Shown here piece by piece: positions 1,509 through 19,512 of a stretch of DNA of 62,120 nt. Made by a program: the position numbers and the translations under genes. Numbering within the stretch: position 1 is the first letter of the stretch; each line of letters begins with the position of its first letter. The stretch comes from a virus, in the IMG/VR virus record IMGVR_UViG_3300021387_000156, positions 1-62,120 of that record; one strand, 5' to 3'. The notes under the pieces are model-generated. The model searched no databases. It saw nothing but the letters and a program-made list of their open reading frames with translations, and was not told the origin of the DNA.

Positions 1509-1769
1509 TCAAATCTCTTCAAGATTAAACAATTCGGCTTGGGTGTAACCCTCATGCCACTCACCAACAGTGCGCCAATTCTTCATGCGGTCATACTTTT
1601 CTTTGCTGACCTGCCATTGCTCCTCGGTGTACTGGAAAGCCCAATCTTGGCCGAAAGTCTCAAACATCTGGTCACGTGCGCTCTCTGCATCTTCGGCCTC
1701 GATGACGTGGTAGCAGTTGCGGTGCGGCTTGTCTAAGCCGACACCGAAAGTGAAATAGTAGCGTTCCAT
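1509..1769 (-). CDS. hypothetical protein (86 aa)
   Basis: Track ORF; start overlaps the upstream stop (TGATG). Confidence 0.6.
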   Translation of the reverse strand: MERYYFTFGVGLDKPHRNCYHVIEAEDAESARDQMFETFGQDWAFQYTEEQWQVSKEKYDRMKNWRTVGEWHEGYTQAELFNLEEI

Positions 1770-2041
1770 CAGTCCTGAAACCCTCCTTTCGGTTTTAGTT
1801 GATTGATTAACTCATCCGCATACAGAATGGCGGCCTTGCAGATGCTTTTCGGAACGATGAACCCACGACCATTCATCTCCTTTTTCTCATTCATTGCCAA
1901 TTCGAACATAGTAGGCAACATGGTTCTCGCAACCTCGTAGCGACGTTGCTCCCAGTTGATGCGGTCGCTGGTCAAATGGTCGGATATTTCGTTACAAGCA
2001 CGTTGAACTGCATAGGCAATGTCTTGCTCAAAAGGGTTCAT
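1769..2041 (-). CDS. hypothetical protein (90 aa)
   Basis: Track ORF; AAAGGAGGTGAGGAATG start context. Confidence 0.6.
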   Translation of the reverse strand: MNPFEQDIAYAVQRACNEISDHLTSDRINWEQRRYEVARTMLPTMFELAMNEKKEMNGRGFIVPKSICKAAILYADELINQLKPKGGFQD

Positions 2042-14793: not shown

Positions 14794-14801
14794 TAACTTT
14801 G
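14794..14801 (+). promoter_or_regulatory. Bacteroidota-type -7 box TAACTTTG for the plus-strand moron
   Basis: TAnnTTTG match 31 nt upstream of ATG 14832. Confidence 0.5.
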
Positions 14802-14831: not shown

Positions 14832-15170
14832 ATGGACTTAAAGACTTTCGTGAAGGAGACCCTCACGCAGATTGCGGAGGGCGTGAATGAGGCAAAACCT
14901 ATTGTTCAAAATGCTGGTTGCTATATCATTGATAGAGTCCCAAATTCTATTGGTTCCAACATACCCAATGCTAATGGACCTGACAACAAATTGCATCCAG
15001 TGAGCAAGATTGATTTCGATGTCGCAATCTGTATTGACGAGGAACAAGCAGCAAAAGGCGGTGCTTTTCTTGCAGTGGCTTCATTGGTAGGTGGTATGAA
15101 TAAAGAGAAAAAGAATAGTAATTCAGTGTTTAACCATGTCGTTTTCTCTATATATATGTCCGTGCAATGA
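14832..15170 (+). CDS. hypothetical protein (112 aa), plus-strand moron
   Basis: Track ORF with its own promoter box; opposite orientation to the flanking genes. Confidence 0.55.
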   Translation: MDLKTFVKETLTQIAEGVNEAKPIVQNAGCYIIDRVPNSIGSNIPNANGPDNKLHPVSKIDFDVAICIDEEQAAKGGAFLAVASLVGGMNKEKKNSNSVFNHVVFSIYMSVQ

Positions 15171-15342
15171 GAACTGCGTAATACTGGGACAATCGGTATC
15201 TCGGCACTCTTTGACTGGTATCTCGATTTTCCTGAAAAGTAGTATTCCGAGAAAATAAATTCGCTTTTCATAGATGCCGCTTTTGCTTCCAGCGCTATAG
15301 TATCGTATTACCTTTATCATAATTAAGTTGTCTTGGTAAGGG

Positions 15343-15432
15343 CGGAGGCGGCAGGATTCGAACCTGCGCGGCGATGTTAGTCGCCCTGGCGCGTTAGCAG
15401 TGCGCTCCCTTAACCAACTTGGGTACACCTCC
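15343..15432 (-). tRNA. tRNA-Ser (anticodon GCU), class II with a long variable arm
   Basis: By-eye cloverleaf: GGAGGTG/CGCCTCC acceptor, anticodon loop CTGCTAA, variable arm GGCGA-CTAACA-TCGCC, T arm GCAGG-TTCGAAT-CCTGC, discriminator G. Confidence 0.8.
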
Positions 15433-15897
15433 ATGTGTGGGCATTTTGTGTCAATGGGGCCCACGGACCATTTCTAAAAGCCATTACGCATTGCTGCGCA
15501 TTTGACAGATGGCGGACACATAAAATTATATGAGCAGTCTAAGCGGTTTGCGTCCTTTCCCGCCCACGCCTCCGTGGGGTCTTTATGCGGTACTCATCCG
15601 GTCGCATAGACATTTATCATTTCGTTAATCACTCGTGAGGTCTTGTCTGCAGCCTCATTTTCTGCACCCGGCTTGGCAGGCCGGGAATTTCGCTCGCATG
15701 ATTTGTCGCTGGCGCGGATGTCACTCTTATTGCCTTACTGCTCCCCTTTGCTCTGCATCACTGCGGCGGAAGGCTCTCGGCATGGCGTTACTCTCATGCT
15801 CGCTCATCGCTTGACTTGCCGGCGTGCTGCCGGTAGTATCAGCGGAAAATCAGTACGTCAAGGAACTCTGCTGCTACCCTTGCGGGTCTTGCTTTGG
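15433..15897 (-). ncRNA. ORF-poor, hairpin-rich ~465-nt region between two tRNA-type elements; candidate large structured RNA (strand inferred from the flanking tRNAs)
   Basis: No plausible CDS (the only ORFs have shadow-like composition). Multiple GC-rich stems, e.g. CCCAC/GTGGG 15563-15578, CCCGGC/GCCGGG 15667-15685, CCGGC/GCCGG 15819-15833. Confidence 0.35.
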
Positions 15898-15968
15898 TCC
15901 GCCGGTTGGATTTGCACCAACGGCCTCCGTGGAGCATCACGGCGCTCTCCTGTCTGAGCTACGGCGGA
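15898..15968 (-). tRNA. tRNA-like element with a 6-nt anticodon loop and atypical T loop
   Basis: By-eye fold: TCCGCCG/CGGCGGA acceptor, D arm GCTC-AGACAGGA-GAGC, stem CCGTG/CACGG with loop ATGCTC, T arm GTTGG-TGCAAAT-CCAAC; followed by CCA. Confidence 0.4.
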
Positions 15969-16001
15969 AATTGTGGTTTTGGCTGCTTCTGACTTTCCGT
16001 T

Positions 16002-16571
16002 TCACTCCTCGCCAGTGCGAGGCTTAAACATAAGGTCAGCCCATTCCTCGATGAATTGCATACCTGCGTAGGATGCGAGTTCACGAGTTCTGAAGGCAAG
16101 CCGAGAGCCGACGCTGGTGTGCGAGCTCGAAGCATCGTGATGCGCGTAGCAGTACACGAAGCCGTGGCTCGAGCTCGTGTAGCTGCCGGAGCGAAGAACA
16201 CAACGCCCTTTTTCCTCATCGTCTAACTCGTCGTACTGTTCCTTGGTGTAGAGATAGAACCAAGGATGGTAACGGCGTTCGCCTTTCTCGAACTTAGGTT
16301 CCCAGCCCTCATTGAGGGCAGCAACGATGATACGGAGTTTGAGGTAGGCATAGAGGTCGTCTAAAATAATATTGCCATCTGCTACTTTCAAGTATTCTTT
16401 TACAAGCGGATGCTCATCACCAAGTGCATTGCAAGCATCCGTAAACGTCTTGATACGTTCGGTTACTGGACGGTTATCTACTTTCTGCTCGTCAACGAGT
16501 GTAAGAACACCGTTAATCCACTCGGCACGTTTGCCGTCGGGAACAGAGATAGCTTGGAGAATTTTACTCAT
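16002..16571 (-). CDS. hypothetical protein (189 aa)
   Basis: Track ORF with an ATG start. Confidence 0.6.
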   Translation of the reverse strand: MSKILQAISVPDGKRAEWINGVLTLVDEQKVDNRPVTERIKTFTDACNALGDEHPLVKEYLKVADGNIILDDLYAYLKLRIIVAALNEGWEPKFEKGERRYHPWFYLYTKEQYDELDDEEKGRCVLRSGSYTSSSHGFVYCYAHHDASSSHTSVGSRLAFRTRELASYAGMQFIEEWADLMFKPRTGEE

Positions 16572-16934: not shown

Positions 16935-17131
16935 AGTTGTAAATCTTTTTAAGTTTTTGATTGAAAATAGTTTGCGGTATCAAAATTTTGTTGTAATTTT
17001 GCGTTGTGATAGATAGATAGTGCAAAGATATATCCATTTGGCTAAATTGCAAAACCAAATGGCTATTTTTGGCCGATATTTATGATTTATTAACATTTCA
17101 CCTGCTTTTAGGTGGCTAAAAAGTTTGCGGT
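16935..17131. promoter_or_regulatory. Divergent switch region between the leftward early operon and the repressor
   Basis: Minus-strand TATCTTTG box (complement of 17014-17021); duplicated AGTTTGCGGTAT at 16967-16978 and 17120-17131; inverted repeat CCATTTGG(13 nt)CCAAATGG at 17034-17062. Confidence 0.5.
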
Positions 17132-17452
17132 ATGATTGAACAAAGATTAAAAGCGGTCATCGCTTATAGTGGATTGAACGACTCGTCGTTCGCCAAGAAA
17201 ATTGGTGTGCAGCAGATGACGCTTTGGCGTCAAATCAACGGCGCACGCAAAATTAGCCTCGAAACAATTATGGCTGTGGCAAACGCCTTCCCCGAAATTG
17301 ATGCCAATTGGCTATTGCGTGGGATCGGCAGTATGTTAGCCGACAACGATGCACAGGAGAAACGTCTTGACAATCTCATTGACGTTATATCAATGCAGCA
17401 GGAAACCATCAAGAACCTCCAAGAGAAAATCAAATCACTTCAAAACTCATAA
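17132..17452 (+). CDS. CI-like HTH repressor with a C-terminal coiled coil
   Basis: SSFAKKIGVQQMTLWRQINGARKISLETIMAVANAFPEIDANWLLRG matches the phage CI-repressor-type HTH; on the plus strand with the integrase. Confidence 0.65.
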   Translation: MIEQRLKAVIAYSGLNDSSFAKKIGVQQMTLWRQINGARKISLETIMAVANAFPEIDANWLLRGIGSMLADNDAQEKRLDNLIDVISMQQETIKNLQEKIKSLQNS

Positions 17453-18324: not shown

Positions 18325-19512
18325 ATGGCTACACTTTCATTGACAGTAGTGCCCGGCAAGGCACTCAAGGACGGAAGACACAAAGTCCGTATCGCGGTGG
18401 CTCACCGCTCACAGACCCGCTACATCCTCACCGATGTCATCATCAACTCCACCAAAGAGTGGAAAAACGGCAAGATCGTCAAGCGTGACGATGCCACTTA
18501 CCTCAACACGAAGCTGCTCCAGCGTATGCAGGAGGTACAGCGCATCATCGACGAGACTCCATACACTGAGGGAATGACCTGCGCCGAGCTGGTTGCCACA
18601 ATCCTGCACACGCGGGCCAAGAAGACGCACACGCTGCGGTCGGCTTTCGAGGAGATGCTGGAGGTGTCAACAGCAAAGGACACCACCAAAGAACGCTACC
18701 GCACGCAGTTCAAGTCCATCACGTCGGTTATCCCCGAAACAACGTTCATGTCACATCTCACTCCACTCATGGTCCAACGCTTCATGAAGAAACGTGGAGC
18801 CGAGATTGCACCCATCACTCTGCAGACGCAGGTGACACTGTTCTCTCAGATCGTCAAGTTCTGCCAAATGAACGGTTACACCGATTTCCGCATACCGCCA
18901 ACACAGGGCTGCTACCAGCGAGTAGTTGCCGTGAGGCAGAACTGGCTTACTCCCGACCAGGTGAGGTTCATTCGCGACAACAAGACGAACCGCAGAGGCT
19001 ATAACAAGTTCCGTGACCTGTTCATGCTGTCCTACTACCTCGGCGGCATCAACCTCATAGACCTTGCTCACATCAACTTCAACGTGTGTGCAGATACGCT
19101 GCACTACGTCCGCACGAAGACAGAACGAAAGACAAAGGTCAATCCTTATGTAGAGTTTGAGATACCATCAGAGGCGAAGCCCATTATCGACAAGTACAAG
19201 GGGGAGGACGGCAAGTTGAAGATGTATAAGGCGGCAGACATACACCAGTGCCACTCAATGGTCCGCACGGTGCGTTCCTATCGTGATGACTATGGACTGC
19301 CGGGGCTTACGTTCTACTCGGCTCGCAAGTCTTTTGCACAGCACGCCTTTGCCCTGGGCGAGAGTGAGAGTGTGATTGACTATGTTCTTGGTCACTCACT
19401 GGGCGGTGGACACAACAAGATGCTGTTTGCCTACATCAAGGTCACGCCTGAAATGGCTACCGCATGCGTGAGAAAAGTGTGCGACTTTATCGCTTCAACG
19501 AGAAATTTTTAG
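18325..19512 (+). CDS. int: tyrosine integrase (Bacteroidota phage/CTn type)
   Basis: N-terminal arm-binding-like region; catalytic region RKSFAQHAF (HxxR-like), VLGHS and FAYIKV (Tyr). Confidence 0.75.
   Translation: MATLSLTVVPGKALKDGRHKVRIAVAHRSQTRYILTDVIINSTKEWKNGKIVKRDDATYLNTKLLQRMQEVQRIIDETPYTEGMTCAELVATILHTRAKKTHTLRSAFEEMLEVSTAKDTTKERYRTQFKSITSVIPETTFMSHLTPLMVQRFMKKRGAEIAPITLQTQVTLFSQIVKFCQMNGYTDFRIPPTQGCYQRVVAVRQNWLTPDQVRFIRDNKTNRRGYNKFRDLFMLSYYLGGINLIDLAHINFNVCADTLHYVRTKTERKTKVNPYVEFEIPSEAKPIIDKYKGEDGKLKMYKAADIHQCHSMVRTVRSYRDDYGLPGLTFYSARKSFAQHAFALGESESVIDYVLGHSLGGGHNKMLFAYIKVTPEMATACVRKVCDFIASTRNF

Follow-up and report, generated by a model that had tools for sequence, protein, structure and literature searches.

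The window analyzed here is the whole 62,120-nt stretch of IMG/VR virus record IMGVR_UViG_3300021387_000156, which belongs to a temperate phage, with a tyrosine integrase at 18325-19512, a CI-like helix-turn-helix protein at 17132-17452, and a leftward operon. Within that operon, on the minus strand between positions 15343 and 15968, lies a phage-encoded, tRNA-linked structured RNA that is unusual in having two integral tRNA-like ends, one of them with a cassette-like arm. The unit measures 625 nt and its layout is constant in all members of the family that we recovered: a first tRNA-like element (TLE1), a core of ~260 nt, a variable linker, and a second element (TLE2), which in the window is a tRNA-Ser(GCU) (Table 1).

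Genomic setting and coding potential

The early leftward operon, which runs divergently from the CI-like repressor, comprises, in order, genes for a 108-aa coiled-coil protein and a 189-aa protein, the RNA unit, and genes for small proteins, Sak, a RecE-like exonuclease, SSB, NinB, a helicase with its loaders, a resolvase, and a ParB-like protein, so that the unit stands upstream of the recombination and replication genes. In the window its start is 33 nt past the stop codon of the gene upstream, a distance that is 8 to 26 nt elsewhere, and it ends ~24 to 30 nt ahead of the next start codon. A candidate Bacteroidetes-type −7 motif, TAnnTTTG, at 17023-17030 likely marks the point at which transcription of the unit-bearing RNA begins; the only other upstream match on the minus strand, at 17248-17255, falls inside the divergent repressor gene, and no TAnnTTTG occurs on that strand between 17023 and 14400, so there is none inside the unit. 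Given the tight gene spacing and the absence of a TAnnTTTG motif of its own, the unit is most likely part of a polycistronic early RNA. Scans for sigma-70 promoters and for terminators returned counts within shuffle expectation, with models that are not suited to Bacteroidetes.

Coding potential is absent from the interval between the two tRNA-like ends, as had been claimed in an initial sequence-only reading of the region. The RNA strand of 15433-15896 contains no open reading frame (ORF) longer than 46 codons, and small ORFs on this strand (e.g., AUGAGCGAGCAU...) were rejected because their end points differ among lineages. The longest frame, of 104 codons at 15643-15957, is on the pyrimidine-rich plus strand, where it is one of two simultaneously open frames and shifts between lineages; it is not kept in homologues and was likewise rejected as coding.

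Table 1. Positions of the RNA unit, its parts, and the candidate promoter motif in the window
Feature	Position	Strand	Basis or remarks
TLE2, canonical class II tRNA-Ser(GCU)	15343-15432	−	ARAGORN; Rfam tRNA, 52.6 bits
Variable linker	15433-15635	−	Alignable only among close relatives
Putative H-type pseudoknot	15437-15471	−	Directly 5' of tRNA-Ser; read by eye
Conserved structured core, ~261 nt	15636-15896	−	Loci at ~83% identity, divergent members, covariation
Last core hairpin (helix 20)	15636-15657	−	5 of 8 pairs compensatory
Hairpin CCCGGCC-UGCCAA-GCCGGG (helix 19)	15667-15685	−	4 of 6 pairs compensatory
Internal domain with long-range closing helix	15696-15799	−	Helices 13 and 16
Long hairpin (helices 10 and 11 of alignment A7)	15808-15845	−	Contains 15819-15833
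TLE1, class I tRNA-like element	15897-15968	−	Rfam tRNA, fold, covariation, constant place 5' of the core
TLE1 anticodon arm, hypervariable cassette	15927-15942	−	Window/L064 comparison and arm variants
Candidate Bacteroidetes-type −7 motif, TAnnTTTG	17023-17030	−	Motif match; promoter role inferred

A conserved RNA family

TLE1 and the core occur together in ~40 phage, prophage, and metagenome contigs drawn from IMG/VR, metagenome-assembled genomes (MAGs), metagenomes, Logan, and NCBI. The block common to relatives at ~83% identity among the IMG/VR and metagenome loci corresponds to window positions 15664-15971, i.e., TLE1 and the adjoining 3' sequence. Scanning IMG/VR, GTDB genomes, and JGI metagenomes for sequence patterns added loci L055 to L068, L070, and L071, among them a Bacteroidales MAG (L062) and a Porphyromonadaceae MAG (L063); another metagenome hit, L069, was discarded, since it is an unrelated contig of high GC content that matched over 23 nt by chance. 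Divergent members (L155, L177, L190, and L212) were found with nhmmer profiles, in which the weakest members score 66 to 170, and with a gapped pattern, and L225/L226 are very divergent. Loci recovered through the neighboring 189-aa gene mostly lack the unit, with L003 carrying it. A search for related loci with a single 68-aa protein returned only the known relative; a search of a large protein collection with an alignment of the small downstream gene (phrog_21219-like), followed by retrieval of the encoding contigs, succeeded. Wherever enough upstream DNA is available, a gene-free gap of 580 to 640 nt precedes this phrog_21219-like gene, and it is filled by the unit.

The unit is found widely in prophages of gut Bacteroidales, and lineages of the flanking gene that include it are represented in the assembly collection by 228 and 89 blocks. 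One member (L213) lies in a prophage of a cultured Muribaculaceae species, Sodaliphilus pleomorphus (GCA_009696565.1, contig VULT01000001.1), where the unit spans L213 positions 3426 to ~3975, and is therefore directly testable. Several members are near-identical, and the unit is also kept in lineages whose flanking protein is only ~30 to 40% identical. Blastn against 50,697 GenBank phage records gave no match, an exact 42-mer of TLE1 was not found in IMG/VR, and a 23-mer of the core was not found in GTDB genomes. So far, the family is restricted to phages of Bacteroidales.

Covariation supports a multihelix core

The 261-nt core adopts a multihelix fold that is supported by covariation, its helices being linked by purine-rich conserved strands (CAGCAGAGUUCCUUGA, GGCAAGUCAAGCGAUGAGCGAGC, GGCAAUAAG, and GCGAGCGAAAU). 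Covariation was assessed by counting pairs in RNAalifold structures against shuffled and slid controls. In alignment A7 (23 sequences), 92.7% of cells were paired and double changes were seen in 47 of 92 pairs, versus 28.6 ± 2.5 in shuffled controls (none of 500 reached the observed count) and 5 to 17 in slid controls; the covariation score was 0.308 versus 0.131 for shuffles. Alignment A6 (17 sequences; 93.6% of cells paired) showed double changes in 33 of 96 pairs, versus 15.8 ± 2.4 shuffled and 4 to 11 slid, and alignment A4, restricted to the core (98.0% of cells paired), showed them in 16 of 51 pairs, versus 7.3 ± 1.6 shuffled and 0 to 3 slid. The minus strand of the window is the RNA strand, since the frequent G·U pairs would be A·C mismatches on the other. 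A new structured RNA, one of the possibilities raised in the sequence-only reading, is supported by TLE1 and a core that are conserved across many Bacteroidales phage lineages with strong covariation among homologues.

The best-supported helices are those of the long hairpin, the closing helix of the internal domain, a hairpin at ~15745-15774, the two hairpins nearest the 3' end of the core (helices 19 and 20), and the acceptor, anticodon, and T stems of TLE1. Helix 11 of the long hairpin has compensatory changes in 8 of 12 pairs, with the upper stem reading CCGGC/GCCGG, CCGAUG/CGUCGG, CCGCCG/CGGCGG, or CCAUCG/CGGUGG by lineage. The internal domain is closed by pairing of 15794-15799 with 15696-15701 (GCAUGA/UCAUGC), which encloses the covarying hairpin at ~15745-15774 and the GGCAAUAAG strand; within this domain, helix 13 is compensatory in 4 of 6 pairs (GCAUGA/UCAUGC, GCCUC/GAGGU, and GCACC/GGUGC) and helix 16 in 5 of 10. 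Helix 20 is found as GAGG/CCUC, GACGG/CCGUC, and GUGGCGG/CCGUCAC.

These results narrow the region initially proposed, in which the whole ~465-nt interval was treated as one structured region: the core fits that description, while 15433-15635 is variable. Of the three GC-rich stems that had been singled out, 15667-15685 and 15819-15833 are conserved with compensatory changes, and 15563-15578 lies in a lineage-specific insert of the linker. Two further candidates were rejected, namely, a CUUGAC/GUCAAG pairing, in which changes in GUCAAG are instead compensated inside the long hairpin, and a hammerhead-like GAUGAG...CGAAA motif, which on inspection by eye lacks U4, has an open stem III, and has no match in Rfam. 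One metagenome member (L068, 1459-1759) has lost ~90 nt internally, and with them the central domain of the core; it is either a natural deletion variant or an assembly artifact.

TLE1 is a tRNA mimic with an exchangeable anticodon arm

TLE1 consists of a 7-bp acceptor stem, a D arm, a 5-bp anticodon stem with a 6-nt loop (AUGCUC), and a T arm with the loop UGCAAAU. The Rfam tRNA model matches 15897-15968(−) with 46.7 bits (E value of 1.3e-8; gathering score of 29), and the minimum-energy fold is a cloverleaf (z = −2.4), in agreement with the earlier description of a cloverleaf-like element with these two odd loops. Its acceptor, anticodon, and T stems covary in A7, all four arms are kept with covariation in every lineage, and every member has the core immediately 3' of it; where it had been seen as one of two brackets around the region, it is an integral part of the conserved unit. 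It is followed by CCAAAG in the window, and a CCA or CAA triplet lies 3' of the acceptor stem in most lineages. The 6-nt loop departs from the 7-nt loop with U33 and a 3-nt anticodon of a decoding tRNA, and the T loop has G at position 55 in place of the second U of U54-U55-C56.

TLE1 is easily missed. Default ARAGORN makes no call on it, and across the window and its homologues ARAGORN gives TLE1 elements a 2-nt "anticodon" or no call at all. The Rfam match appears only when the searched stretch is ~1 kb or less; because of the Rfam speed filters, a cmscan of the whole 62-kb window misses this 46.7-bit element at both gathering and E-value thresholds, and a 1-kb search finds it. Standard annotation thus overlooks such elements.

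The anticodon arm of TLE1 behaves as a hypervariable cassette. Between the window and L064 there are 18 differences over 15343-15970, of which 14 fall in 15923-15942, and 15380-15922 is identical; the comparison with L062 shows 5 differences, of which 3 are in loops of TLE1. A fuzzy search with a short pattern found the alternative arm of L064 also in L061, the remaining matches being noise. At least 10 arm variants are known, with loops of 4, 5, 6, or 8 nt or a bipartite extension, and never 7 nt: AUGCUC, AUGCCC, CAGAGU, CAAAGU, and CAAGGG (6 nt); AAGAG, GACAG, and AACAG (5 nt); UGAAAGAU and UAAUAUCG (8 nt); a bipartite extended arm in L228; and a 4-bp stem with a GAGA tetraloop in L225. Such cassette-like swapping hints at selection on a nondecoding part of a tRNA mimic.

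The T loop UGCAANU, with G55 for U, is common in phage tRNAs. At least 120 IMG/VR contigs have tRNAs that carry GGUGCAANUCC, usually with D loops like AGNCAGNA, and their anticodon loops are mostly normal, so a G55 T loop does not by itself exclude tRNA function. Since many phage tRNAs share it, recombination between phage tRNA genes with common D- and T-arm sequences is a plausible route for arm exchange. Many IMG/VR gut phage contigs of 65 to 135 kb (L077, L084, L086, L092, L098, L100, L110, L120, and others) carry a conserved G55 phage tRNA with an 8-nt anticodon loop (CUUGGUAA, AUUGGUAA, or CUAUGCAA), close relatives of which have the 7-nt loop UUUGUAA; these may be natural expanded-loop tRNAs.

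TLE2 and the variable linker

The sequence-only reading had placed a canonical tRNA-Ser(GCU) at 15343-15432(−), and ARAGORN (bounds of 15340-15433) and the Rfam tRNA model agree. This element, the single tRNA that ARAGORN reports for the window, is a class II cloverleaf with a long variable arm and a 7-nt loop carrying the anticodon GCU. The same form of TLE2 is present in L003, L062, L064, L067, L070, and L228, and the sequence of L233 is cut off inside it; in L003 (5046-5138) position 33 is C for U (loop CCGCUAA). A second form, in L055/L071, L056 to L059, L063, L066, and L190, is a Ser-derived class II tRNA-like element (type II) with a fully covarying "anticodon" stem of 6 to 7 bp and a conserved 8-nt loop, CGRCCAUR; it scores 25 to 33 bits against the Rfam tRNA-Sec model, below the gathering score of 47. 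The third form, in L155 and L212, is a compact tRNA-like element with an 8-bp acceptor stem and a canonical T arm.

The linker of the window includes an extra insert of ~85 nt, and that of L190 is almost absent. An H-type pseudoknot adjoins TLE2 in several lineages, its second stem occurring in four covarying forms as read by eye, and the putative version in the window is proposed by analogy with these.

A proposed excised RNA of the early operon

Taken together, the anatomy of the unit suggests a new tRNA-flanked structured RNA module that would be freed by RNase P/Z-type processing of the early transcript, a reading that we favor and hold with about even confidence. RNase P and RNase Z recognize acceptor and T arms. 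In both TLE1 and TLE2 these are the parts that are kept and covary, whereas the anticodon arms are degenerate (a GAGA tetraloop or loops of 5, 6, or 8 nt) and drift or are swapped; we therefore propose excision by the host tRNA-maturation enzymes. The unit would be transcribed within a polycistronic early RNA, host RNase P would cut the 5' sides of TLE1 and TLE2, and RNase Z or exonucleases would trim their 3' sides, releasing a stable folded RNA whose core may act in trans. TLE1 might still be joined to the released RNA as a 5' cap, as its conserved junction with the core and the CCA-like triplet 3' of its acceptor stem would suggest. Excision would also separate the first early gene or genes from the downstream mRNA and, in some lineages, deliver a usable tRNA-Ser, and the anticodon arms, being irrelevant to RNase P and RNase Z, would be free to be swapped. 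A processed tRNA-linked transcript had been suggested from the outset, and it is plausible given the tRNA-like ends, the gaps of 8 to 33 nt, and the lack of a promoter motif within the unit.

Several observations weigh against this reading. Pure processing handles need neither the conserved 8-nt loop of type II TLE2 nor an anticodon arm that in TLE1 is always a tidy hairpin, and the tightly conserved junction suggests that TLE1 and the core may function together in a single molecule. A search of the same transcripts for sequences complementary to the unit gave nothing consistent across lineages. The scored structures were derived from the same alignments, which favors them somewhat; the slid controls, together with the count of independent pair types, speak for a real signal. 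Finally, folding energy is no better than that of shuffles (z = +0.47 for 15433-15896 on the minus strand, +0.89 on the plus strand, and +0.13 for the core). The three stems named in the sequence-only reading exist, but its impression of a hairpin-dense region is not above chance by this measure; because covariation is strong, we do not count a z score near zero against structure.

Each new large structured RNA class has tended to reveal new biochemistry, and such RNAs are rare; this one is compact enough for study and well supported by covariation. If the processing reading is correct, the unit would be a bacteriophage example of tRNA-like elements serving as built-in processing or capping modules for a cargo RNA.

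Alternative explanations

An alternative that we consider unlikely, though not strikingly so, is that the unit acts in cis within the early transcript, its folded core influencing the transcribing polymerase or the fate of the mRNA in the manner of put/nut antitermination or of a stability element, with the tRNA-like elements acting only as punctuation and no role for a free RNA. The unit always comes after the first early gene or genes, with the repressor and the divergent promoter region close by and the genes for recombination and replication downstream, and it has no promoter motif of its own; the nut and put sites of lambdoid phages occupy a comparable position in the early operon. Known put/nut sites, however, are far shorter and lack tRNA-like parts, what lies next to the unit on its downstream side varies (with an opposite-strand moron in the window and L212), and the terminator scan identified none that would need to be overridden.

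It is also conceivable, although we think it quite doubtful, that the tRNA-like elements are themselves active as decoys, substrates, or specificity modules against host tRNA-targeting defenses or competing phages, with the anticodon arm as the determinant and the core as scaffold or regulator. This would suit the replacement of the TLE1 arm as a cassette between otherwise identical units, the recurrence of one alternative arm in the independent contigs L061 and L064, the avoidance of 7-nt loops in all of the arm variants, which keeps TLE1 out of decoding, and the conserved CGRCCAUR loop atop fully covarying stems in type II TLE2; defense nucleases that attack anticodon arms are documented (PMC12445682). 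The arm variants, however, have no motif in common and are unlike the real 7-nt anticodon loops that a decoy should mimic; in one lineage the loop is just a GNRA tetraloop, a covarying partner sequence was sought without success, and neutral arm swaps could arise by recombination among tRNA genes that share D- and T-arm sequences. A related and equally tentative idea, to which we assign little weight, is that the unit is a programmable RNA in which the exchangeable arm would set specificity, through a factor of the host or a rival phage that is bound, evaded, or titrated, and the core would do the work; if so, it would be an RNA-based immunity or antidefense device of gut prophages with no described counterpart.

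A neutral origin, in which a tRNA-Ser gene, a decaying tRNA pseudogene, and a spacer are conserved only through close kinship, is very improbable and already disfavored. The chance-level folding energy, the truly variable stretch at 15433-15635, and the several near-identical members would be expected of such a spacer, but lineages that are similar only at the profile level (nhmmer scores of 66 to 170) keep the helices through compensatory changes as well as insertions and deletions, TLE1 retains its four covarying arms in every lineage, and the unit persists where the flanking protein has diverged to ~30 to 40% identity.

We give even less credence to the possibility that the region is a phage attachment site (attP) or a plus-strand protein gene. 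Temperate phages often integrate into tRNA genes, and the window has both a tyrosine integrase and the 104-codon plus-strand frame; but the tRNA is full length, lies inside the early operon, separated from the integrase gene by ~2.9 kb and three other genes, and has its place taken by a nontRNA look-alike in many lineages, the unit is internal to the S. pleomorphus prophage, and the plus-strand frame fails on the grounds of conservation and overlap given above. The phage location beside a tRNA, typical of GOLLD and ROOL (PMC5737381), is what would recommend a divergent member of GOLLD, ROOL, HEARO, raiA, tmRNA, a group I or II intron, or a C4/CI-type antisense RNA, a reading whose chance is close to negligible since no Rfam 15 model except tRNA was found at an E value of ≤0.5 in the window and nine homologous loci (tRNA-Sec being below threshold) and ARAGORN reports no tmRNA.

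Comparison with known RNAs

The unit is not a member of the GOLLD, ROOL, HEARO, raiA, tmRNA, intron, or C4 families, as no Rfam 15 family except tRNA matches it. A cmscan of 15200-16200 at an E value of ≤10 recovered only tRNA, plus four chance-level matches at E values of 2 to 7 that are far below gathering scores (Plastid-psbl-rps4, CRISPR-DR10, IRE_I, and sR16); models for group I and group II introns, HEARO, raiA, C4 antisense RNA, and Y RNA gave no match at this cutoff, and tmRNA was found neither by Rfam nor by the ARAGORN tRNA/tmRNA scan. The suggestion in the sequence-only reading of a GOLLD- or ROOL-class RNA is accordingly not supported, neither model matching the window or its homologues.

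GOLLD and ROOL are noncoding structured RNAs that are found in phages and prophages near tRNA genes (PMC5737381). Our unit is likewise noncoding, structured, and located next to a tRNA-Ser in a temperate phage, which has integrase, repressor, Sak, RecE-like exonuclease, and SSB genes. It differs in size, with a core of ~260 nt versus ~580 to 800 nt, in lacking any sequence or structure match to their models, and in its fixed, integral tRNA-like elements at both ends. GOLLD and ROOL themselves have many multistem junctions and pseudoknots and form a homo-oligomeric cage.

RNase P processes nontRNA substrates that include polycistronic operon mRNAs and the C4 antisense RNA precursor of phages P1 and P7, which, as would hold for our unit, is embedded in the early/immunity-region transcript of a temperate phage and freed by the host enzyme (PMC11143913). 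The unit differs from C4 and P4 CI in that it has no Rfam match beyond tRNA and no antisense target was found for it, whereas they are ~70 to 80 nt, act as antisense RNAs in the same transcript, and have no full cloverleaf. P4 CI RNA, too, is released by RNase P from an early/immunity-region transcript of a temperate phage. The stable RNAs of the T4 tRNA cluster (species 1 and 2) and spacers of tRNA operons such as 3'ETS-leuZ are cotranscribed with tRNAs and cut by tRNA-processing enzymes; compared by description only, they are shorter and have no flanking nondecoding tRNA mimic.

In mitochondrial transcripts, the TMERs of MHV68, and MALAT1-mascRNA, tRNA-shaped elements recruit RNase P and RNase Z and set the ends of neighboring RNAs, for which they need not decode. 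These systems are eukaryotic or organellar, in contrast to our unit, whose processing is inferred, and to our knowledge no bacteriophage tRNA-like processing handle with a dedicated structured cargo has been described. In tmRNA and YrlA, as in the unit, a tRNA-like domain is joined to another functional domain, but theirs is built from the two ends of the RNA or has no anticodon arm, and the unit has neither a tag reading frame nor a Ro-binding stem. The motifs listed in published catalogues of candidate viral structured RNAs are only 29 to 151 nt long (PMC10690425), and fragments of the unit may stand unnamed among them.

Other features of the neighborhood

Two protein genes beside the unit are patchily distributed. 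A 112-aa ORF at 14832-15170(+), directly after the unit and antisense to the early operon, has a promoter-like TAnnTTTG at 14794 and a homologue in L212 (~1570-1860, minus strand) and is absent from L062 and most other lineages; with its own promoter motif it looks like a moron. The gene for the 189-aa protein (phrog_11581; 16002-16571, minus strand) lies between the coiled-coil gene and the unit only in the window and L003, is absent from other unit-carrying lineages, e.g., L059, L062, and L064, and is thus a mosaic insertion beside the unit.

A group of related gut phages (L200 to L211) without the core shares the small downstream gene, and L200 has four matches to the tRNA model between its early genes, at 1145-1246, 1685-1771, 2592-2704, and 2807-2960 (87 to 154 nt; 31 to 51 bits), which are also present in L198 and which ARAGORN detects in intron mode only. 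Their anticodon loops carry inserts of 31 nt in Asn(ATT), 14 nt in Gln(CTG), 42 nt in Thr(TGT), and 78 nt in Lys(CTT); group I introns are usually 200 nt or more, and these inserts, at 14 to 78 nt, are too short to be such introns. The presence of other odd tRNA-like genes in coreless phages fits a wider use of tRNA-shaped punctuation in these operons.

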